Below the pieces are notes generated by a model. The model was not told the DNA's origin. It saw only the letters and a program-made list of their open reading frames with translations, and ran no database searches. DNA of 62,293 bases, the filler included, from Basidiobolus ranarum (taxonomy: Eukaryota), in assembly GCA_040143965.1 (NCBI GenBank). It is 7 parts of 7 records of this genome, joined end to end, with 100 filler letters (N's around TTAATTAATTAA, not from the genome) between each part and the next. Parts side by side here need not be neighbours in the genome. Positions count along the whole stretch, not along the records: positions 35,698 to 44,501 come from JASJQH010007793.1; 6 more parts are not named here. One strand, 5' to 3'. Made by a program: the position numbers and the translations under genes. Positions 7,814-53,584 of this stretch are shown here, one piece after another (the first letter of the stretch is position 1; each line of letters starts with the position of its first letter).

Positions 7814-8266
7814 GTTGTGCAAAGATTAGTCAAGTAAAAAGAGGTGACAAAGAAACAACCTAAATTATAACTAAATGTCGCGTACAAATTGTTTACCTCT
7901 ATCAGGGATTTTTTTACTAAGATTTCATTGCATACGAGCTCAGGTGAAAACATTTTTTCTTTATATCCGTATAGAAATAGACTTGTTCAATACGTAGCTT
8001 AAAGGTTGGTTAACTTGGCAGTGTGATTAAATATCTTAAATATTTCGATCATTAGTATATTATTCAGATTCTACACTAGTTCAAACATTTTCCAAATATA
8101 CGTGTCATTGAATTGATGATCCTCGAGTTTCTGTGAAGTTTGCATCCAAATACATCAATCAACCTATCAATTTTGACTTGTATCCAAGTAGCGCCTTTTC
8201 TTTTAACCAGTCTTTTGAGTAGTAGTCTTAACTTGGAGATTATAGTTTCTTCTAATTTAGTGTAGC

Positions 8267-8834
8267 ATGAACTCTCAGCAGCAACCATACAGCCAACCTG
8301 GGAGTCCGCACTCTAACAACGGTTATCCCACTCAGCGGCCTCCTAATGGTCCTCCAAACATGACAAGCCCACCCACTTCTGGCATGATGCGTCCTCCCAA
8401 TTCTTTTGTTTCTCGTCCTAACTCGCCTCCGCAACCTGGTATGCGCCCTCATGCTGGTCAATTCCCACCAGGAGCTAGACCACCTGTCTTGGGGAGCCCA
8501 AACCAACTACCATCTGGACAACGCCCTCCTATGGGCATCCCTCGTCCAGGACTTCCCATGCAACGTCCACCTGCCAATCATTCAGGTACATAAATATTTT
8601 TATCGGATAATCTTTAACTTTTATTCACCTGCCAGTATTATTTCCATATAGCTCAGGGTGTTCCTCGTCCTCAGCAACCTATGCAGAATTCTGGCGGCCC
8701 TCATCAACAGAATGCTATGAATCAACCTAATATACCTCCTAGTAATCCAAATACAATGAGTGGACGTCCGCATTTGCCAGTTCAATATCCTGGTATGCCC
8801 ACCTCTCAGCCACAGTATGGCCTCCCTCCTCACC
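8267..8834 (+). CDS. 5' part of a gene with a Pro/Gln/Gly-rich low-complexity N-terminus (possibly COPII Sec24-type); truncated by spacer
   Basis: ATG-initiated ORF divergent from SmD3, with an intron at about 8587-8651 that keeps the frame. Product guessed from composition only. Confidence 0.6.
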
Positions 8835-8934
8835 NNNNNNNNNNNNNNNNNNNNNNNNNNNNNNNNNNNNNNNNNNNNTTAATTAATTAANNNNNNNNNN
8901 NNNNNNNNNNNNNNNNNNNNNNNNNNNNNNNNNN
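8835..8934. other. Artificial contig spacer N44-TTAATTAATTAA-N44
   Basis: The same 100-nt spacer occurs at 17764-17863, 26692-26791, 35598-35697, 44502-44601 and 53405-53504; it has stop codons in all six frames. Confidence 0.98.
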
Positions 8935-10016
8935 AATCTCCAAGAGCTTGGAATAGCAAGATAGATGCTTTTTTGGAAACACTCAAATTCCAAAAGAGTA
9001 ATGCTGACTATAGTATCTACTTCAGGCCAGATAAGACAAACCCAGCTTAATTAGCCTTGTATGTACAAAACCTTATCATAGCAATCAATCACTTGAAGAC
9101 TTTGGAGAAAACCAAATTCAGCTTATATGCCAAATTCAAAATGACTGATTGAGGTGAACTGATATACTATCATGGAATCTAAATTAAGATAGATAGGACT
9201 ACCAAAACAATAACCTTAAACCAGTCCAAGTATATCCTAGATATACTAAAGAAGTTTAAAATAGAAGAATGTAATTTAGTATATGCACATATTCTGGATC
9301 AAAGTTTGACTTGATGGGATGTTCAGATGCAAATTGGGGAAGAGATATTAAAGACAGGAGATCTACAACAGGATACTTATTTCTTTGCTGTATTGGAGCT
9401 AATTCTTTAAATTCAAAGAAACAACCTATCATAGCACTTTCAACAATAGTAGCAATATACATGGCTGCCTGTTAAGCAACAAAAGAAGCAATAAGGCTAA
9501 AAAACTCCTAACAGACCTAGGTTATTCTCAAAATTCACCAACAAAAATACTTTAAGATAATCAAAGTTGCATCAAGTTAGCTAAAAATCCCACAATTCAT
9601 AATAGAAGCATATATATAGGTATTAGATATTACTTCATTAGAGAGGCTATAGAGAAAAAGTTTATTGACTTGACTTACTGTTTAATGGAAGGCATGATTG
9701 CTTATACATTAACCAACCCATTAGCTAGACAGAAATTTGAGAACTTTAGACCTTCCTTTGAATTAACTTATATAACTATTTAGTTGAGGGAGATTGTTGA
9801 CATTAATGGTGCCTATTTTTTCAAACTTGTGCTAGAAGCCCTAAACTTTGCACACATGTTCCTGGGACTTTCCTTAACAAATTCTACATGTTAGTTTGTT
9901 TATATCTGGAAAATACTATAAATGTCAACTTTTGTACTCAATGTATCAACAAGTAAAAACATCCAATTTCACTACTTCTCCAAACCACTTCCAACAGGCT
10001 CCCAAATACTCTAACA
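8935..10016 (+). mobile_element. 3' end of a degenerate copia family-A element: RT/RNase H, PPT and an internally deleted 3' LTR (9795-10016)
   Basis: Remnants of PRAWN, SDANWGRD...RRSTTGY, SKKQP..ALST and LARQKFE; purine tract AGTTGAGGGAGA precedes TGTTGA. Confidence 0.9.
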
Positions 10017-11657
10017 TGCTCTTCTTTGTATTTGGATATTGTTCTTGAGAAAGTTGTCATAATCTGGAATACATAACTTGGCTCTCTTGCATGCTGTTGG
10101 CCAATATTGGGCCCTGGTAAAATTGAATGGTCATTTAGGAATTGGCTTATAGAAATAGGGTTTGTGTCACCCACATCTTGTACTTTTTCTACTGCTGTTC
10201 TTTGATTTTCAGGTGATGGTGATTGAAGGCCTGCAGTAGACTATTCATTTGATGTCTGGGTGGTTGCAGGAGGTGATTATCTAACAGTCAAATTAGTTAG
10301 ATGGCTACTTTTTTCCAACTGTTGTTGGACATAGTTATATATCTATGAGAACTAATATTTGAATTTAAACTTGAAATATATTTCTGCACTTGTCCCAAAG
10401 ATTTTTAGGAATTTTTTCAATTTTTTATATTTATATCATGATACATAACTATTAAATGAGGACTGATGCAAGCCATCAGAGGAATAAAACTCTTACACTC
10501 CATCCATAAGCACACTGACTTGATCAGGTGTTAGATGCTCACTTGCCAGCCCTAATGCCAGCATTCTCTCCCACTCCCAGAGTGCTCCATGTATAACCCA
10601 ATATTGGGGAATGCTTTTATGAAGGAGCAAAAGCTGATGAATTTTGTTAGTTATCTCAACTCTGTTCCTAAATAGAACTATAGAATTGTAGAAATTTTGA
10701 TGCCTATTTGCAGTTAGTCATTCTGCAGTGCCCAGTGCATGAGTGATTTGATTCCTACCAGATGTTTCCAAGTTTTGGGACTGTTAGTTTGTTGTTATCC
10801 CACTTCAAATACTACCTTTGCCCCTTCTAGTAGGGAGATTTGGGAAGTGATTTTGATATTTGCATGGCATGAAACTTACTGATCCTTCTAATTACTCTTT
10901 TTTGCAAATAAATTCCTATAATTACATAGCTGTGGCAGCTATGATGCCCACTTTATCATATCAGCTATCATACTTAGCTATGATCTTAACTCTTGTCTTT
11001 AATCAATAATATGCTTGATAACCATTACTTTGTCAGCAGTTATGATAAGGTATAGCCACTATAGTTCTCTGAAGTAATTGAAATGTGCAATGGCTTGTCT
11101 ATAATCACTATGTTAATCATTGGCAGTCATTAATGCCATCCTATTATAGTGAATATAATAATTATGTAACTTCAAATATTTGCTGGTTTGAGAACATCTA
11201 TACCTTAAAGTGTTTCTTGTATTTGTAGTGTATTATAATATTTTCAATCTTTGTAACTTGGATGAAGGAACAAAAGTTATGGCAAGGACATTTTACTACA
11301 CATACCAAAGTGAGTAAGTTTTTAAAAAGTTATTCATATTTGTAGTGTGCATTGAATGATACACAATCTTCTTAACTCTGGTGAAGTCAGAGATGAAATA
11401 TGTAGACATAGTATGTTTTGTGCAAACACTAAAGGTAAGCTTAGAACCCTTGAATTATTTCTTAACTTAAAAAAGCAAAGTCAATAAATCCCTCACTATT
11501 TTGCTCTTAAATTAGAAACACTTGCATGTTGCAGATTGGCTGTGGGAAAAAAATTCAGAAAAATTATCCAGTAATCATCTAGGAAATATGTATCAAAGTA
11601 GTAGTTTATTCAATGGAGGTTATCTATAGCTGGAAAGCTTTATGCAAGTAAATTGAA

Positions 11658-17763: not shown

Positions 17764-17863
17764 NNNNNNNNNNNNNNNNNNNNNNNNNNNNNNNNNNNNN
17801 NNNNNNNTTAATTAATTAANNNNNNNNNNNNNNNNNNNNNNNNNNNNNNNNNNNNNNNNNNNN

Positions 17864-26581: not shown

Positions 26582-26804
26582 GTAAGAGATGGAGCTGCGC
26601 CACTTCATATTTAATCTACAGTAGAGCTGAGGGGGGGGAGCGGGGGGGGGGGGTGGGGGGGCCGTTGGGGGGGGGCGCGGGGCGGGGCGCGNNNNNNNNN
26701 NNNNNNNNNNNNNNNNNNNNNNNNNNNNNNNNNNNTTAATTAATTAANNNNNNNNNNNNNNNNNNNNNNNNNNNNNNNNNNNNNNNNNNNNTATCGAGCA
26801 GATC

Positions 26805-35516: not shown

Positions 35517-35697
35517 TTTGGATTCGTATCATCAACGTGTGTAGTAGTCAGGTAGAGTATACGAATTGATTTGTAATATTCTTTGAGATAAATATTTNNN
35601 NNNNNNNNNNNNNNNNNNNNNNNNNNNNNNNNNNNNNNNNNTTAATTAATTAANNNNNNNNNNNNNNNNNNNNNNNNNNNNNNNNNNNNNNNNNNNN

Positions 35698-36480
35698 GAT
35701 CTATAACAGGATACTTATTTTGTTGCTGTAATGGAGCTTTTTCTGGGAATTCAAAGAAACAACCTACTGTAGCACTTTCAAAAACAGAAGCAGAATACAT
35801 GGCAGCCTGTCAAGCAGCAAAAGAAGCAATATGGTTAAGAAAACTCTTAACTGATTTAGGTTATTCTCAAAATTCATCAACTACAATATTTCAAGATAAT
35901 CAAAGTTGTATCAAATTTGCTAAAAATCCCACATTTCATAATAGAAGCAAACATATAGATATCAAGCATCACTTCATCAGAGAGACTATAGAGAATAAGT
36001 TTATTGACTTAACTTATTGTTATACAGAAGACATGATTGCTAATATATTAACCAAACCATTAGCTAGACAAAAGTTTGAGAAATTTAGACCTTTATTAGA
36101 ATTAGTTAATATGACTATTTAGTTGAGGGAGAGTGTTGAAATTAGCATTGCCTAAACATCTGTATAGTCATATATAGCTTATACTTAGTTATCTCATATT
36201 TCACTAAGATATTATCCATTATTCTCAATCGGAATTTACTTAGAATATTTTTACCAACTTAGAAGTTCTCAGATATATGGATTTTTCAAACTTGTGCTAG
36301 AAGCCCCAAACTTTGCACACATGTTCCTAGGACCTTCCTTAACACATTCTACACATTTGTTTGCTTACATCTTGACAAAACTATAAATGTCAACTTTCTA
36401 CTCAATAAATCAATAAGTGAAAACTACCAATTCCTCTAATCCTCCAAACCACTTCCAACAGGCTCCCAAATACTTTAACA
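35698..36480 (+). mobile_element. 3' end of a copia family-A element: RNase H, PPT and a full 3' LTR (36134-36480)
   Basis: SKKQPTVALSKTEAEYMAA...QDNQS...HNRSKHIDIKHHFIRE...LTKPL; AGTTGAGGGAGAG then a 347-bp TG...CA LTR. Confidence 0.95.
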
Positions 36481-37475: not shown

Positions 37476-38692
37476 TTTAGGACATTGCTTTGAGGTGTAA
37501 TAAATTGGGCATAACGTAGTTAACGTGTACGTAAAAATCAGATTTGATGAAGGTCAAGCAAGAGAAACATAGAAATTGTCGGTGTACGCGCGTTAGAATT
37601 CTAAGCATTCAATCTTGTTACTCAGGATTTGTTGGTGGATGACAACCCAACCCAACGTTCATTTCGAAATTCCTTTAAGCACGAATAAATAGCAGTGAGT
37701 GGGGAGGGCCGTTGAAAACCAGTTTGTTATTTGTTTTGTAATATATTGAGTGAGGGAACGATTAATAGTTTTATAGCCTCACAGTCTAGGATTTCTCTAA
37801 TATATCGTATTGTATCAATCTTTAACGATAATAGTCGTGGTTCAAAGACCAGACTTGGAATATTACGCTTCTTGTTCAAAGAGAGAATAGCGTGAGTTAT
37901 CTGCGCCTAGGATTGGTCCACTGCTACATGAAAAAGTCTAAACTATTATGCCTAAAGAGTCAATGTAACGTCAATCTCCTATCAACGCTATGTATACGCC
38001 ACCGCCATTACAAAGTCTGACATTGGCACGAGAAGACATTTATCTAGAATCTTGATCGAGTATATGCGCATAGACATTGACTGTCCACCATGATAAATCG
38101 ATTTTAGATAGGTTAATCATCCGCTTGGCATCCACTCAAGACTTGGAGAGTCCACGCGCCATGAGCTCAGCTTGTGGACAGTAGGTACACCTAGATTTGC
38201 ATTGAATCTCCTTAATAGACCGGGGCCAGCCATAATCCATGAGCGAAGGCCAAAGAACGTGTCTTTTTCTTCAATCGTTCGTGTTCTCTACATTATATGA
38301 CCCGTCCTGTTTCTGGGAACATCGTCGATTTTTCTAATTTCCGAGTCCAGCCAAGGGTGGTATGACGTCAGAAGTTCCATCTGGTGAACCTCAGTCGTTT
38401 ACATTTAACACATGATGGTGCGACAAGATAGGCGCTTACCTTTAAGTCAGTCTGACTAGTTTAAATTGTTTCATTACCAAGTGGATGAGTGAATTTAATA
38501 AACGATCGGCCCACCTCCTCGGCTCCGGCCCTGCCCCACCGAATGTCCACAGCCAATCAAGTAAGTGATTGGCCTGCCCCCCTTTTCTCCCTGCTCAACC
38601 CCAGGAGAGTATCCACAATACAGACGGTGCTTAAGTGTACACTCGAGGGAGCGTCACTTGCACAATTTCTTGTATTCTATACGGTCATAGAA

Positions 38693-39833
38693 ATGTCTTG
38701 GATTAGTCAAACTCCCACCAAACGTGTATTCAACACAGGAAGCACTGCTGCAGGCAGCAGTAATCCAAATTTAACTGAATTCCTTCGTAGTTGCAAACTT
38801 TCGCAATACTATAATGATTTTCTTACTTCTGGTGCCAGCGAAGACGATGTTCCCATGCTTTTGGATTTTGCCGATAATGAAATTTCCGAATTATGTTCAG
38901 CCATTCCTTTGAAACCATTTCACACTGTGAGTTTCAAAAGAGGTCTTAGAATATTGAAAGAACAACTGGGTATCACACCGCCACAAGTATGTGTTGATTT
39001 TAGTTGAAGGTTATAGGCTATACACTAACGTATGGATTTTGTAGATGAGTCTTAAGAGCACTCCGTCAGACGCTCACTCAACACCTATTGCTCCATTTCA
39101 CTCTGTCACTTCCCCTACTTGCACAAACACGGTAGCTCAACCTATTCATAAGATCCCAACCCCCATTTCAATTTCTCCCGAAGTAGTTGAGAGATTTCAA
39201 CCAGAGGCGGCCACCACGATCATCGATACTAAGAGTCCTGTGTATCCATCGGCAACCTCCATATCTACCGTTGGCTCCGAGAAAACCGGAAACCCGAACG
39301 AAGATTTGATAATAGAAAGAGCGACTATATACGGGCGTAAAAGTGGACGTTCTTTGACCAATTATGAAAAAAGCATGAACGACGCGGCTATTGCTATTGC
39401 TTTGGCCGAACCAACGCTTATTTTAAACCGAGGTCAACTTATAGAAAAATCAAAGGCCAAACTGTTGCAAGATGGTTATGTTTATAGTCGTGGTAGATCT
39501 CGCTCCAAGTTGGTTCGAGCAATCAGTAATTCGGACAGTATACAAGAACCGCAGGCTATCAACGGCACCCTTACACCTGTTTCAAGCGATTTGGGAGGTC
39601 GAGAGGAAGACTCCAGTTCAACTTCTGATAAGGAACACCAAGCAATAATGTCAGGGAAAGCACGTAGACGTACCAGTCGCGAACAAGACGATGGTGAAAG
39701 CGATACAAAGATGAAAAACAAGAAGCACAAGTTCGACAAGGAAAAAGATTGGGATAAAGAGAGAGATGGAGAAAGAGAAAAAGAGCGAGATCTCAGTCTT
39801 CGAGGTATTCTTCAACATGATGATGATAATTGA
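38693..39833 (+). CDS. NAB (NGFI-A/EGR-binding corepressor)-like protein with NCD1 (SAM-like) and NCD2 domains; exons 38693-38986, 39045-39833
   Basis: LTEFLRSCKLSQYYNDF..SG..EDDVPMLL.....EI.EL....PLKPFH...FKRGLR (NCD1-like); IIERATIYGR...RSLT.YEKSMNDAA..IAL.EP.L..NR.QL......GY.YSRGRSRSK (NCD2-like); basic NLS-like tail. Confidence 0.8.
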
Positions 39834-41037
39834 AGGAATTTTAATAGAACTTCTCAGATTCTGTACTCTACGTTCAATTTGACATACCAAAGATGTCGCA
39901 AATCTAACATATATTTAGCTACCTTTGCGGTTCTTTTTCACTAGCATCTTATCGTCGTTTTCATTGTTATGTCTTTATCTGATTTCCCGTACATATTTTC
40001 TATTTTTTTAGCATCGGGCATTTGCCTAGTTTACATTGTTGCGATGAACTTTCGTTCTTTTACTATGAATCTCTTAACTGTATTTGAGTTGAAGATTTTG
40101 CGTTTATTTTTATCCGAATATATGTATTCCACGAATAAAGTCGGGCTGCGTATATATAGTATTACTAAGAAACCTTCAGTAGTGAACAAGTTTTAGCTGT
40201 TTGGCTCCCAACAAAGTGACAGAGCAGTGGTAATACCTTATTAACCAACACCTTTGCTGGCATTTATTTCCATAAGGTTTATAATCTACTTATGGTGTCG
40301 TGTCAACTATGTAAAGTTAGCCCACTTCTCCTGAACCCCAGACCGGATGACTTTGAACCAGCTGTCTTGACACATGAAATATGCAAGCATTTGGATGATA
40401 AATCATACGCACATGGAAAGTGAACATATTGTAGCTAGCTTGGTGGCGCATTTAGCATGCTCAAAATACATGAAATCTAAATACTATTCATAGATAATAA
40501 AATACAGCTTTACCACAGTAAGAACTAGTTCAGCTATAGTATACAGATATATAAGATGACCATTTACTCACCAGCTTTAATAATTATCTAAACCCACAAC
40601 ACAGCTGTTATTTGTGTTGACAGATACAAATGTATATAATTATCAAGTACTGCAGTGATAGTTTCTCCTTTGAGAAGGTGACATACTCAAGATCATTTAT
40701 AACACATGGAATCAGAAGGCCGTTGCAATGTTTACAATAACTGATTCTACTCACTTTTCAGTGTACGTATGAGAGCTGGTTACTAGCTTGAGCTATCACA
40801 AAAAGTCTCACAACTATTCAGGATGGCATTGGTATCTGCTTTCTTATTCCAAGCACTTGGCATAGTAAACACTGACCTTCAACTACTCTAAGATATAGAT
40901 GTTTCACTTGCTACCAGGGTGAAATTCTGCACTTACCGCAGAGAGGCAAACTACTATGGCTAAGGATTTGTCAGAGGAACACTGATCACCATCAATATTT
41001 GACAAGAGAGTGATGCCGGTTTATGAGATAGCAAAAG

Positions 41038-41358
41038 TGTTGAAATTAGCATTGCCTAAATACCTATATAGTCATATATAGCTTAGTATTTAGATATCCT
41101 ATATTCCACTATGATATCACCCAATATGCTCAATTGGAATTTACTTAGAAGTTCTCAGATATATAGATTTTTCAAAAAAGCCCCAAACTTTGCACACATG
41201 TTCCTGGGACCTTCCTTAACACATTCTATGTGTTAGTTTATTTCCATCTTGACAAAAGTATAAATGATGACATTCTACTCAATAAATCAATAAGTAAAAA
41301 CCATCAATTTCTCAGATTCTTCAAACCACTTCCAACAGGCTCCCAAAATACTTCAACA
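41038..41358 (+). mobile_element. Solo LTR, copia family A (small internal deletions)
   Basis: TGTTGAAATTAGCATTGCC...ACTTCAACA. Confidence 0.9.
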
Positions 41359-41538
41359 ATTAGCACCATGGTTAGGGTGAGCAGTAGGAGTACTACCACC
41401 CAACCTTCAAGACCAGTAACTCTAGGATATTTCCAATCTATGTCCTACTCCATCTAAGTTATATTGTTCAGCCATAGCTACTAGATTAGGTGCAAATCTA
41501 TCCACAAGAACAGAATCTCCAAAAATAGGTCTAGTCTA

Positions 41539-41882
41539 TGTTGAAATTAGCATTGCCTAAGCACCTATATAGTCAAATATAGCCTGGTACTTGGTTATCT
41601 TATATTTCACTAAGATATTACCCATTATTCTCATAAGGAATTTAGAATATTGATGCCAACTTAGAAGTTCTTGAATATATAGATTTTGATAACTTGTGCT
41701 AGAAGCCCCAAACTTGGCACACATGTTCCTGGGATCTTCCTTAACACATTCTTCATGTTAGTCTGTTTGCATCTTGACAAAACTATAAATGTCAACTTTC
41801 TACTCATTAAATCCATAAGTGAAAACCATCAATTTCTCTAATTCTCCAAACCACCTCCAACAGGCTCCCAAATACTTTAACA
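41539..41882 (+). mobile_element. Solo LTR, copia family A, with a near-perfect 5-bp TSD
   Basis: Flanks are GTCTA (left) and GTCTT (right). Confidence 0.92.
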
Positions 41883-43139: not shown

Positions 43140-44501
43140 TGAGGAGTTCTGAGGATTTTGTAAACAATATAACTACCCACCGCCGTATCTCGAAGTTCTA
43201 TCATATATCTAAGATCCTCATGCTCCACAGATCTTTGGAATACATGATCCCCAAAGCTTACCCATCTAGGATGCATATCCAGCAACAAGATCCAGCGATT
43301 AATGGTGGATCAAGGTTTGGAAGCCATGGCCTGGAAGGTGTTTCTGCATGTGGCTCTAAGAGAGTCACATGGAATACATTGTCAACCTTGAAATAGGCTG
43401 GGAGTTCAAGGTGGAAGGCTACTGAATTGATTTGCTTAATAATCATAAAAGGCCCTAGTCTGTTATGATCAAGTTTAACACAAGATCTGGTGGTTTTGAT
43501 ATTTTTTTGGAGTAGCCAAACATAATCTCCTGGCCTGAGATCTGGACTTGTCTTTCTTTTCTTATCAGCAAAGTTCTTGTATAGGGATTGAGCATGCTCC
43601 TACTCAGATATTAATTGTTTATGGATGTCTTAAGGAAAGTGGCATGGCCTGAGGCAGCAGGGCCAGGTAAATTAGCTGGTGGGCAAATTGTGAAACAAGG
43701 ATGGAATCCATAATTTGCAAAGAAAGGAGTTTGTTTTGTTGAGATATGATAAGAGTTGTTGTAAGCAAATTCAGCAAGAGGCAAGAGTTGTGTCCAATTA
43801 TCCTGATTACAGTTGATAGTGCATTGCAAATATTATTCCAAAACTTGATTGACTCTTTCTGTTTGGCCATTGGATTGGGTATGGAAGGCAGTGGAGAGAT
43901 TGGCAGAGGTACCCAAGGTAGGGAGGAGACCTTTCCAGAATCTGGAAGCAAACTGAGGTCCTTGGCCAGAGATGATAGTTTCAGGGAGTCCGTGTAGGCA
44001 GAAGATGTTTTGAGTTACCAACTCTGCTGTTTGTTTTGCATCAATTGACTTGTTGCAGGGCACAAAGTGGGCAATCTTTGTTAGACAGTCGACAATTACC
44101 AGAATTGAAGTATATTTGGCAGACAAGGGTAGTTCAGTTATGAAATCCAGGAATATGAAATTTCACTGCTGATCAGGAATTGGAAGTGGCTGTAGGAGGC
44201 CATAGGGCTGATGTCTTGGAGTCTTCAGTTGAGCACAAGTAGCACAGGTGGAAATATAAGTCTTGACAAATGCAAACATTGTGGGCCACCAACAATCCGT
44301 TGATGTCAACATATATGATATGGCAACACCAAAGTGTCCTGCCAGTGGTGAGTCATGTCTTTCCTGCATGATTTTGAGTCAGGAAGTGTGGTCTGGAATG
44401 TAAAGGCACTTCTTATAAAACAAAAGATCATTGATGATAGAGAAATGGTGGTACAGGTTCAAGCTTGAGAGGTCTTTGGGTGTTTCCTGGGCTTTCTTGA
44501 T
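43140..44501 (-). mobile_element. Degenerate Ty3/gypsy integrase region (HHCC, catalytic core, GPY/F, possible decayed chromodomain)
   Basis: HDSPLAGHFG..WWP..CATC, YGLLQPLPIP, ILVIVDCLTKIAHFVP, GLPETIIS.QGPQF.S.FW, NGQTERVNQ.LE, LPLAEFAYNN, VFHVTLL. Confidence 0.92.
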
Positions 44502-46273
44502 NNNNNNNNNNNNNNNNNNNNNNNNNNNNNNNNNNNNNNNNNNNNTTAATTAATTAANNNNNNNNNNNNNNNNNNNNNNNNNNNNNNNNNNNNNNNNNNN
44601 NATTGTCACAATATCTTAAAAGATTGATGTCTTGATTGTCACTTTGTTTAGATTAGTATTTAAGCTAAATAAAGTCCACACCATCTGGTGCTTTTCATCC
44701 CCCCTAACCCTCCCTTACCCTTACCAGAACATCTATACCCTAACCCTAAGTATTCTGACAGTATTTGGTATGTTTAAGTATTGAACCTAAATATACAGCA
44801 TTCATTATTCAATATCATACAAGTTAATTCAAAATTCCTTTTTTGGCTAGTATTTTTACTGGTTTATCACTGAGTCACTACTTTAGTTTGGCACTCCCTT
44901 CATGTTTTCTACTATTGTCTGTACCAGTTTTGACCTGGCTTATTGTTCTTGCATCAAATTTGTTTGACAATTCTAACGCAGCTATTTTAAACCATATTCT
45001 TCCATATATCTTAATCTTGACTTGCAAAATAGGTATATTGTCACTTGACTAGCTTACTCATTTTGTTGAAAAAGGAGTATATTTCTTGTTAATTCTCCAT
45101 TCCCTTGGTAACACCTTCTGTGATACCGTTGGAGGATTGCCTATGTTAAATTTGGTCTTTCTCAAAGTGCACCTGGAGCAGACTCCGCTAATGAAGTTTG
45201 TATATTTTTTGTCTAGTATTGCATAACATTGACGAACACTTCATGCCATTCTTCCGATTTTAGCCCACAAGCATTGAACCTTTCGGGAGAGTTCCTTCCA
45301 ATAAACTCTTTGCACATGTAACAATGATTCAAGCCGCGTAGCTTTTATCTAGTACACCTCATGGAGTAGCTTTTCACATCTTATTTCCGGCTATATGTCT
45401 TACTCCGGCTCATACGGATGTGTTCTTCCATAACTTTCGAAGCAATACTTTCCGTAAAATATCAAATTCTCTACAAACAAAGGAATTAGTGCATGTCTCG
45501 AAATTCTGTTTCACGACTAACTTACAGTTATCAAGCTTTCTAATGGGCAAGTTTTAAATCGGCAACCAATGATGATATCTCGTGGCTCGAATAACTCCTT
45601 AGATTTTCGAATTTAAGCTTACATACTTCATGCATAAACTGGTCCCAGATCCCTAAGCTGCCTAATCATTTTTTTACTGTGTTGACATGGCATAAAACTG
45701 GCCAATAATAATAATAAAGCAAAACTAATAGGTCAATCTCGCTGATTCTTACGCATGCCAATAATGGAAACAACCAGCAGTAGGTGAGATAGAAACAGAG
45801 CGTTTCGTACAAGACGGCACTCATACCTTCATTAAGATATCGGTGTTCCCTCTAGGGCTGTGCACTTGAGATAGCAGTTGCGAATGGATAAACCAGGCCT
45901 GGCTGAAAACATAGTATAAGCAACGCACATGCGATTACTAATTGATTACTAAATCTAATCAGAAATGTTTAAATTTAATTTCCATTCGTTCTGCGGATAA
46001 CCAGGTTTGGCTCTTCTCGTTCGATCTGTTTCAACTTACCTAGCCCTCTCGCCAAGAAAGCTTTGAGACATTTTCGCTACCAATGTTGTGGCTCCCCACT
46101 CAATTATTAGCCAATGTCAAGTCGGGATCTGAAAATGAAGTAGAGTCAACAACCGAAAAGAAAATTGCTCGCTATTAGTTTGATTTTCCTTTCCACCATT
46201 GCCAAGAACCTCAGTTACTACAAATAGGAACATTGGTAGCAACTTCTCTAAGAATTCATTAGCTTCGTTCAAA

Positions 46274-48243
46274 ATGACTTTGAAACTAAACAACATCTTC
46301 AAGGCATGGTGTGTCTTCTTTGTCTTCCTCTCGTTTGCATACGCAGATACTCCACCCATTGCTTATACACCTGTCTCTTCAGCAAATGTGGAGTTATCTA
46401 AGTATACAAGCTCAGTAGTTTTAATGCCAGATAAGTATACGATCCATTGGCGGGTGGATCAACAAAGCCAGCCACCTTCAATCACAATCCTATTGCAAGT
46501 TAAAACCACAGGATGGTAAGTTCCTTTTCACCATGGTTCACAATTCGAGACTGCACTAACATGACTCAGGGTCGGATTTGGATTTTCTGATCCAGCAACA
46601 GGAGGAATGCCCGGATCGGACATAGTCACTGCCTCTACCACAAAGAATGACACTTATTTTACAACCGTGTTGACTGATCGTTACGCAGTGAAAAAAGATG
46701 ACCCTCCTCCCGACAATTGTCAGAGCTACACACCGAACTTTGGATACCAAACTACCGATGGCCAGACTATGGTTGAATTTACGCGCCCACTAAATACTAG
46801 CGATCCTCAGGATCGGGTGGTGACGAGTGGGTCCGTATCTATAGTTTATGCATTTGGTGATGATGGTATGACCGACGTTTCCTACCATGGTAACAACCGC
46901 GGGTATACCGAAGTTACTTTCTATAGTGGCAATAGCACAGATGCTAGCAATCTAGTACCTGATGCACAAACGTTTAATTATACTACTGCCCCCTTTAAAC
47001 TTTCTGCAGAGCCCACACTGTACTCTTGCACAGGATTTGTTTTCGATCCTTTGGCTAACTCTACGAATACCACTGGACATATTACAGCTGTCTCACCGAT
47101 AATCGGGTCGGAATACGTTCATCATCTGCTTGTCTTCGTATGCCCAAATGATGACTTCTTCAAAAAGGTTCAAAATAACCCTACTGTCTGCGCTTCATCT
47201 AATCCCAATGACACCACTGAGGGGATGACGGGTTGCTATGGTCTGGTTTATGGGTAATTCCAGAATATTCAATTTCTTATGAAGAATCACTTGAATCTAA
47301 CATACTATTTAGCTGGGCTATAGGAGGTGGTAAACTCGAGTATCCAGCCGAGGCTGGACTGCCTTTTGGTGATGTTAATGACCCCTTTACTACTAAATAT
47401 GTGATAATACAAATCCACTACAACAATCCAACTGGAAGCGATCCCAATATAACTGACCAAACAGGAGTATCAATTCAATACACTCCGACAAAACGACAGT
47501 ATGATGCAGCCTGGATGGTTTTGGGAGATCCCGTTGTGGCTTCTCCTCCTTTGACCTTAGGCAAAACTGATCCAACCGAGCTTCAGTTTACTTGCCCAGG
47601 TGAATGTACTAAGGTTTGGCCTCACGAAGCACGCATATTTGCCTCAATGCCCCACATGCATAGCTATGGAACTCAGATCTGGAGCACTGTGACTAGCACT
47701 GATCCTACATACAAAGGAAACAATCCAAGAATCATTGGTAGTGCAGATGGAAATACCAGTATAGTTATGGATCGTTCGGAGTTCTGGGAATTCGATTTTC
47801 AAAGAATACATAAAATGAACGATTTTTGGATTCGTCCAGGTGACCGCATTAACACGCACTGTGTGTAAGTAGATACTGCTTTAAATATTAATGAATACTG
47901 GAGATCTTACTACTTACTCTATTGAAGGTACGATACTTCTGTGAACAAATTTCCGAACCTGACCCCCAACGCTACTACAGTGAATTTTGGCATTGCTTCG
48001 TATGATGAAATGTGCATGCACTTTGTGGCTTACTATCCACGTATCGAAGCAACCTATTCAAGCCTAAACATGCCTTTCATGTATTGTGGCGTGGCGGATA
48101 GAAATCAAACCATGACTTTATGTGGAGTTACCGCTAATGATACTATGCCTATCGCCAATCCCCCTACCCTATCTTACCTTCAAGATCCAAAAGGAGTGGA
48201 GATACTTCAATTCGGACAGCCATCTGCTACATGCCCTGCTTAA
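46274..48243 (+). CDS. Secreted DOMON + copper type II ascorbate-dependent monooxygenase (DBH/MOXD1/tyramine beta-hydroxylase-like); exons 46274-46515, 46570-47253, 47313-47864, 47928-48243
   Basis: Signal peptide; DOMON motifs GWVGFGFS...GMPGSDIV, VEFTRPLNTSDPQD, YHG..RG; CuH ligands VHHLL and IQIHYNNP; WAIGG; CuM ligands PHMH and DEMC; three consistent phase-2 introns. Confidence 0.93.
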
Positions 48244-53404: not shown

Positions 53405-53584
53405 NNNNNNNNNNNNNNNNNNNNNNNNNNNNNNNNNNNNNNNNNNNNTTAATTAATTAANNNNNNNNNNNNNNNNNNNNNNNNNNNNNNNNNNNNNNNN
53501 NNNNAATATGTCCTATTTATAGTTTACTATGAAATAGGACTATTGGACGTGCTTAGATCATAACAAACATGCCTGTTAAGCATG

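Follow-up and report, generated by a model that had tools for sequence, protein, structure and literature searches.

A fungal host gene homologous to animal NAB in Basidiobolus ranarum, and related NCD2 cores on DNA transposons

By its sequence, a two-exon gene of the fungus Basidiobolus ranarum encodes a homologue of the animal NAB corepressors. The protein is a variant and not a canonical NAB: its SAM domain is of the NCD1 type, and NCD2 is present only as the C-terminal core. We analysed the gene in a window of 62,293 nucleotides (assembly GCA_040143965.1); positions count along that whole stretch. Related cores, without a SAM domain, occur on DNA transposons. The explanation to which we lean, at slightly better than even chances, is that an old nuclear regulator, made of SAM, NCD2 core and helical hairpin, persisted in zygomycete fungi, was remodelled into NAB in animals, and had part of it taken up by a transposon.

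The window consists of separate contigs of about 8.8 kb chained by runs of N, so gene order across the joints is meaningless. The gene lies on one of these contigs, C7793 (8,804 bp), and runs on the (+) strand from a start ATG at 38693 to 39833. Its spliced product of 360 amino acids is identical in sequence to P0003, the database entry for B. ranarum K7432_011621 (360 aa), which NCBI names a hypothetical protein. The features are as follows.

38693..38986, + strand: exon 1, residues 1-98, containing the SAM domain
38762..38968, + strand: NCD1-type SAM domain, residues 24-92 (best Pfam match, AlphaFold helices, fold searches, conservation)
38987..39044, + strand: intron of 58 nt, phase 0, GT-AG, with GTATGT donor, branch point ACTAAC at 39024 and TAG acceptor
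39045..39833, + strand: exon 2, residues 99-360 and stop
39045..39299, + strand: disordered P/S/T-rich linker, residues 99-183 (composition, pLDDT, paralog identity)
39300..39512, + strand: NCD2 core, residues 184-254, a four-helix unit and then a basic tail, net charge +6
39483..39509, + strand: basic motif Y245-K253 at the end of the NCD2 core (conservation; low confidence in the isolated model)
39513..39830, + strand: charged tail of low complexity, residues 255-360, in which 303-307 and 320-327 are basic patches
8835-8934, 17764-17863, 26692-26791, 35598-35697, 44502-44601 and 53405-53504: N-run joints between the contigs of about 8.8 kb

Elsewhere in the window, a gene at 46565-47868 combines DOMON and copper type II monooxygenase domains, an architecture like that of dopamine beta-hydroxylase/MOXD1 and an animal-like gene type. 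A repeat of about 350 bp is found in many copies of 73-87% identity (36134-36480, 41036-41359, 41539-41882 and other window contigs). Some copies adjoin copia-like RNase H remnants (35646-36122), and a Tf2-like SH3 remnant lies at 43258-43599.

Within SAM residues 24-92, AlphaFold predicts five helices, and F30, L31, Y39, G47, F76 and H77 are invariant in the family. An earlier note on this DNA had described a SAM-like block at the N-terminus, a Pro/Ser/Thr linker and, downstream, a block of the form IYGR...GY.YS. Each of these is present: SAM_NCD1 is the best Pfam match of exon 1 (E 0.0026), the IYGR...GY.YS block lies in exon 2, whose best Pfam match is NCD2 (E 0.00016), and proline, serine and threonine make up 46% of linker residues 94-183. 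Note that the Pfam check bears out NCD1 and NCD2 by rank and not by score, since both matches fall below their cut-offs (18.2 bits against 24.3, and 22.2 against 25). Similarly, the claim of a NAB architecture with both domains stands for the domains, their order and their homology, but NCD2 is matched over profile positions 54-125 of 125 only, its C-terminal 70 positions or so. Complete NCD2, with profile positions 1-53, is absent. The linker sits where that N-terminal half would be, and the residues preceding the core are P/S/T-rich, predicted to be disordered (pLDDT <50 across residues 99-179) and weakly conserved (28% linker identity with a paralog). In the tail, residues 255-360, both the helical hairpin described below and the Nab1 C-terminal domain are absent; basic patches 303-307 and 320-327 are a possible nuclear localisation signal.

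On the sequence evidence we take both domains, and the order in which they come, to be truly homologous to those of animal NAB. A profile of 22 fungal members, searched against the PDB, has human NAB1 NCD2 (2YUF) as its top match (E 1.8e-7, 34 bits); the single sequence, searched with phmmer, reaches 2YUF at E 0.95 only. The core pairs with 2YUF residues of about 59-142, and 2YUF residues before 59 are left unaligned. In an ESM Atlas feature search, animal clusters carrying SAM_NCD1 and NCD2 rank first (score 0.90), and 10 out of 10 best family matches are concordant. The isolated core compares with NCD2 clusters of the Atlas at TM 0.66-0.69. A core model built from 125 sequences (pLDDT 87) places 2YUF first among 48,161 chains in a VIA fold search, with Z 6.4, below the guide level of Z 8 (rmsd 7.7, 78 aligned; runner-up 4.5). 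Foldseek also ranks 2YUF first, with TM by query 0.60 and a non-significant E of 0.92. Such modest fold scores would support NAB homology only in conjunction with the sequence evidence. With the full-length model, SAM folds lead both fold searches; this model is of low confidence, and Foldseek returned SAM domains only, none at E <0.001.

A generic SAM domain was rejected. SAM_NCD1 matches 18 of the 22 fungal members, compared with 10 for SAM_1 and six for SAM_2. It also matches both NAB-like copies in the genome and 0 of 8 other SAM stretches, taken from the 13 found there. These eight are a weak control: SAM_1 was used to select them, and six have a length of just 39-51 aa. Genome searches with PF04904 and PF11928 gave 0 matches, as did their controls, and are hence uninformative. 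Family members P0015, P0027, P0034 and P0170 exceed both Pfam cut-offs, and an NCD1-type SAM together with an NCD2 core was recognised by local profiles in 57 of the 195 proteins collected.

The window gene is, to judge from its relatives, a genuine fungal host gene. Two intact NAB-like copies are carried by the genome. The second, on a 33-kb contig, has an intron of 72 nt at the same codon position as the 58-nt intron of the window gene, and its neighbours are SWIRM/ZZ/Myb, Bap31, Rpr2, enoyl-CoA hydratase and TPR/HAT genes. Between the paralogs dS is saturated (2.3 and 3.8), and dN rises from 0.12 in the NCD2 core to 0.23 in the SAM domain and 0.85 in the linker. These values indicate that SAM and NCD2 core are under purifying selection. 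An ortholog is present in B. meristosporus. A stretch of 29 nt 5' of the start codon (window 38646-38674; paralog L050:6931-6958) is 83% identical at a non-significant E of 0.58, and is possibly a 5' element common to both paralogs.

The earlier note had argued against contamination. The intron common to both paralogs, the fungal clade described below and the composition of the coding sequence (GC3 0.35, within the 0.30-0.48 of five further ORFs of the window) agree with it. Animal contamination is ruled out by the paralog with its common intron, the B. meristosporus ortholog, the fungal clade, purifying selection and the housekeeping neighbours. Neither result named by the note as telling against its reading arose: NCD2 was matched, and the tree has no signal of animal contamination, though canonical NAB rows are lacking from it. 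The explanation that a generic SAM and a weak NCD2-like match came together by chance, or that the assembly contains animal DNA, could draw on the sub-threshold Pfam scores of the window protein and on a repeat-rich 8.8-kb contig without conserved neighbours. It has against it the profile, fold and SAM-type evidence for homology, the members above both Pfam cut-offs, the B. meristosporus ortholog, and a paralog that shares the intron and sits among housekeeping genes. We give this explanation almost no credence.

A HMMER search with the NCD2 core gave 429 proteins at E <=0.001, and classification was done on the best 150 of the 429. By local profiles, 42 of these 150 are of fungal type and 108 lack a SAM domain. 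A SAM domain is present in 29 of the 42; of the remaining 13, most begin a short way ahead of the core and are possibly fragments. Named fungal-type members cover at least 26 genera of Mucoromycota and Basidiobolus: Basidiobolus itself, seven Glomeromycotina, Endogone, Jimgerdemannia, Umbelopsis, Mortierella, Actinomortierella, and 13 Mucorales including Mucor and Rhizopus. Among the best 150 of 429, with 30 looked up by name, there was no named chytrid, member of the Dikarya, other Zoopagomycota or unicellular holozoan. The survey proposed in the note extends the family widely on the fungal side and, within those 150, to no named unicellular holozoan. The pattern also means that vertical descent needs several losses. 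A pattern search for viral homologs gave 176 matches, of which 0 were confirmed.

Several fungal records already carry the UniRef label 'NAB co-repressor domain-containing protein'. The Mucoromycota proteins so labelled resemble the window protein in having a SAM domain and an NCD2 core (median core identity 51%), fall with it in one clade, and are likely its orthologs. The note had considered the family unknown in moulds; this is contradicted by the Mucor and Rhizopus members, by the labels, and by a 2014 listing. In the supplement of Barrera et al. 2014 (PMC4102429), NCD2 is listed, out of 137 fungal proteomes, for Rhizopus delemar alone; the supplement does not comment on NAB and has no entry for NCD1. 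The term NCD is absent from the text and one supplement file each of PMC10079182 and PMC8778642, and from the main text of 10.1101/2022.11.15.516418, whose supplements may list the family. A literature search that excluded most subscription journals found no study on fungal NAB. The fungal family has thus been recorded by automatic annotation but is apparently unstudied.

A tree of 77 NCD2 cores over 79 columns comprises 39 fungal rows, 37 SAM-less rows and P0142, with no canonical NAB rows and an unsettled bootstrap. Support is 96/85 for the split that sets the fungal rows and P0142 apart from the SAM-less ones, and Basidiobolus branches among the fungi. P0142 (481 aa) has an NCD2 core and a fungal-like hairpin, no SAM, and a long branch; it could represent a further fungal or protist lineage. 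Canonical animal NAB was not recognisable in the best 150 of 429, where a SAM domain was found in 0 of the 108 SAM-less matches. Hence, it is the transposon type, and not NAB, to which the fungal core is nearer.

The confinement of named homologs to Mucoromycota and Basidiobolus, among the best 150 of 429, would also fit an ancient horizontal transfer, in which a NAB-like gene of an early animal or holozoan passed to the ancestor of those fungi. Such a transfer needs a donor combining SAM, truncated core and hairpin, and none was found in animals. In addition, Dikarya have often lost genes that early fungi and animals have in common. The R. delemar listing in the PMC4102429 supplement is in keeping with a transfer, and according to PMC10079182 Basidiobolus is rich in transferred genes, though these are bacterial. 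We consider this explanation improbable, the more so than either of the two further alternatives weighed below.

Mucoromycota members add a helical hairpin after the core, ending RKH[QR]WY in 32 of the 42 top fungal-type matches. This sets them apart from the three Basidiobolus proteins, which lack the hairpin (profile scores <4 bits). Fungal and SAM-less proteins align with an HHalign probability of 99.9 across 174 columns, which take in the truncated core and, after it, a related hairpin. The fungal hairpin profile reaches 10 bits or more with 33 of 48 SAM-less proteins, compared with one of 48 reversed and one of 48 shuffled sequences. In the reciprocal test at the same level, 25 of 34 fungal-type proteins other than Basidiobolus were matched, against 0 of 34 reversed. 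These reversed and shuffled controls rule out generic coiled-coil likeness as the cause. In Mucorales proteins P0022, P0024, P0026, P0027, P0040 and P0043 a motif at the C-terminus, ES[DE][VI]R..., short and conserved, follows a long low-complexity tail. The motif is common to many Mucorales members and is a possible docking motif.

Six loci of the SAM-less group (L003-L008) were examined, and one, L003, holds a complete element. Further copies are frameshifted or decayed. The elements are these.

L003:3924-9545: complete element of 5,622 bp, with 27-bp terminal inverted repeats matching at 25 of 27 positions
L005:205-2451; L006-L008 around 7835-11340; L004:554-1656: further copies, frameshifted or decayed

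The L003 element sits in a TRIM-NHL gene, which it splits within the NHL repeats, and the target duplication is TAA (3 bp) or ATAAT (5 bp), either reading being equally possible. It encodes, in order, an N-terminal exon without Pfam match, the core with hairpin, and two large overlapping ORFs with a PHD-finger end. The downstream ORF family is common to five of the six loci; these amount to three independent settings, since L006-L008 have common flanks (about 95% identical). L004 has the N-terminal domain and core in one exon, and is too short to judge the downstream ORF. All six loci lack a recognisable SAM domain (lowest E 0.65), and full-length transposon ORFs start with a domain unrelated to SAM. 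The transposase-like ORF of L003 has no transposase match in Pfam (including PF07592), NCBIfam or the PDB. Its motifs may be Zator-like. By its termini and these motifs, L003 would be a Zator-like two-gene DNA transposon. The hosts of the SAM-less group are presumably sponges or other animals, going by the TRIM-NHL flank and an Atlas label of Porifera (five members with a phylum). The Zator superfamily is defined by an ISAzo13/TP36-type DDE transposase, short terminal inverted repeats and a 3-bp TWA duplication. For Zator-1, a section of PMC12905397 gives short inverted repeats and TAA duplications, which the 27-bp repeats and the TAA reading of L003 fit, the 5-bp reading being equally possible.

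That fungal NCD2 is a truncated core, apparently nearer to this transposon-borne form than to canonical NAB, was missed by the earlier note and opens a rival origin. NCD2 core and hairpin may be native to the transposon as an accessory ORF, from which host genes were domesticated, either in a single event that predates the split of animals and fungi or in two, one giving NAB in animals and the other the gene of zygomycete fungi. NCD2 would then be a transposon-encoded module for binding DNA or chromatin, inherited from the element by the fungal protein as a chromatin- or DNA-binding factor. Animal NAB and the zygomycete regulator would both be domesticated, with the fungal SAM-core-hairpin protein a surviving intermediate. 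In the complete L003 element, core and hairpin are encoded upstream of a large ORF with a PHD-finger end, and the downstream ORF family recurs in 5/6 loci. Fungal and transposon proteins have the truncated core and hairpin in common (HHalign 99.9), along with a basic tail. The fungal core is near the transposon type (median identity 40%), and the transposon-type profile scores 50.6 bits against 2YUF, above the 34 bits of the fungal profile.

Set against this are the different N-terminal ends. SAM is found in 0 of the 108 SAM-less matches (best 150 of 429) and in 0 of 6 loci, the transposon ORFs open with an unrelated domain, and two separate domestications would each have had to join the core to the same NCD1-type SAM. 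The fungal cores form their own clade. Neither the L003 transposase ORF nor PF07592 matches anything in the B. ranarum genome, an incomplete assembly. The accessory ORF lies inside terminal inverted repeats, beside a transposase-like ORF and in many decayed copies; the window gene, in contrast, has no transposase or terminal repeats nearby and exists as two intact copies under purifying selection. A location of the window gene inside a transposon also has no support: there is no transposase match in the window, and on the contig the sequences on either side of the gene share no inverted repeat. Overall, we consider an origin of NCD2 in the transposon unlikely, and the domestication of both NAB and the fungal regulator, with the fungal protein as intermediate, equally so.

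The explanation we favour, an old regulator inherited by fungi and animals, starts from an ancestor with an NCD1-type SAM, an NCD2 core and a helical hairpin. Mucoromycota would retain all three, and Basidiobolus would have lost the hairpin. Canonical animal NAB would retain SAM and NCD2, the latter having an N-terminal half in addition to the core, and an animal DNA transposon family would have captured core and hairpin. Such an ancestor is the simplest given the mosaic that is observed, where an NCD1-type SAM is common to fungi and NAB, and truncated core and hairpin are common to fungi and transposon. If SAM and NCD2 are ancestral, one fusion suffices.

How the fungal protein might work can be approached from animal NAB (NAB1, NAB2, Drosophila Nab and C. 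elegans MAB-10; PF04904 and PF04905). Like the fungal protein, these have an NCD1-type SAM, low-complexity sequence and NCD2. They differ in that fungal NCD2 comprises positions 54-125 of 125 only, in lacking the hairpin that Mucoromycota members add, and in the Nab1 C-terminal domain PF04902, found in 0 of 148 homologs; arthropod NAB clusters are also without PF04902. Passages of PMC2132876 describe binding of animal NCD1 to the R1 domain adjoining the EGR zinc fingers, and repression by tethered NAB. The NAB2 C-terminal region interacts with CHD4 (part of PMC11554739), and MAB-10 interacts with itself and forms nuclear foci (part of PMC10584935).

We propose that the fungal protein may be a nuclear transcriptional or chromatin regulator, a reading adopted on account of the animal NAB precedents and the basic, conserved core. 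Across 27 fungal rows and 97 without a SAM, the net charge of the core has a median of +7. The basic tail, Y245-K253, is conserved more than any other stretch over 125 fungal and transposon-type sequences, but the isolated model leaves it poorly ordered, which suggests that it may fold on DNA or chromatin. The fold search with the core brought no DNA-binding fold to the fore; its matches to sigma factors and HMG proteins, at Z <=4.4, are background. The SAM domain would self-associate and dock a short helical motif of a partner, and the basic NCD2 core would contact DNA or chromatin and mediate regulatory output. On this reading the partner could be something other than an EGR-like zinc-finger protein.

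The earlier note had held that the NAB-zinc-finger system predates the animal-fungal split. In such a conserved corepressor system, the fungal SAM would bind an R1-like motif of a C2H2 factor and repress its targets, as NAB does with EGR/LIN-29. This is compatible with the explanation that we favour, to which it adds a conserved partner, and the NCD1-type SAM under purifying selection speaks for it. The searches did not bear it out. A strict R1 pattern (presumed consensus) has 0 matches in the fragmented genome assembly, compared with five in a reversed control. An R1-like regex (presumed pattern) has 0 matches in 24 C2H2 loci, and no EGR-order finger pair is found among 21 distinct C2H2 ORFs derived from 24 pattern matches. 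These searches yielded no EGR-type partner in B. ranarum. Truncation of fungal NCD2 is a further point against the idea. At least 13 of the 21 ORFs (own-genome loci L009-L029) are of a CreA/Mig1-type with two fingers, an expanded family of likely repressors. In nine of the 13, one end of the protein or both, beyond the fingers, bears an L-[SAQ]-x-I-[LM] motif. We take this motif, loosely, to resemble the R1 core. It is also close to the [VI]xx[IL][LM] class, and for motifs of that class, in fungal factors such as scr1, part of PMC4943189 makes a link to Tup1-type corepressors, an alternative reader. Tup1-Cyc8 and Groucho/TLE, as treated in that part of PMC4943189, are cofactors without sequence-specific binding that are recruited by short motifs. 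Their likeness to the window protein is a functional analogy only; they are WD40 and TPR proteins, unrelated to it in sequence and fold. We regard a conserved corepressor system as doubtful, on a par with a transposon origin.

NAB is usually treated as an animal cofactor, and the portions of the literature consulted ascribe to NCD2 no activity at the molecular level. A conserved homolog in Mucoromycota and Basidiobolus moves the pairing of SAM and NCD2 far back. This significance is tempered by the automatic labels already on fungal records and by the absence of a partner from our searches. Tractable moulds, Mucor and Mortierella, allow the role of NAB to be asked about without EGR. The transposon-borne core, with its near-invariant basic tail, leads to a testable proposal, namely that NCD2 binds DNA or chromatin. 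The link to transposons bears on where NAB arose, and raises domestication as a possible origin. Animal NAB proteins act in myelination and in the larval-to-adult switch, and feature in NAB2-STAT6 tumours. If the domestication reading were true, the NAB corepressors of all these settings would derive from an accessory gene of a transposon.
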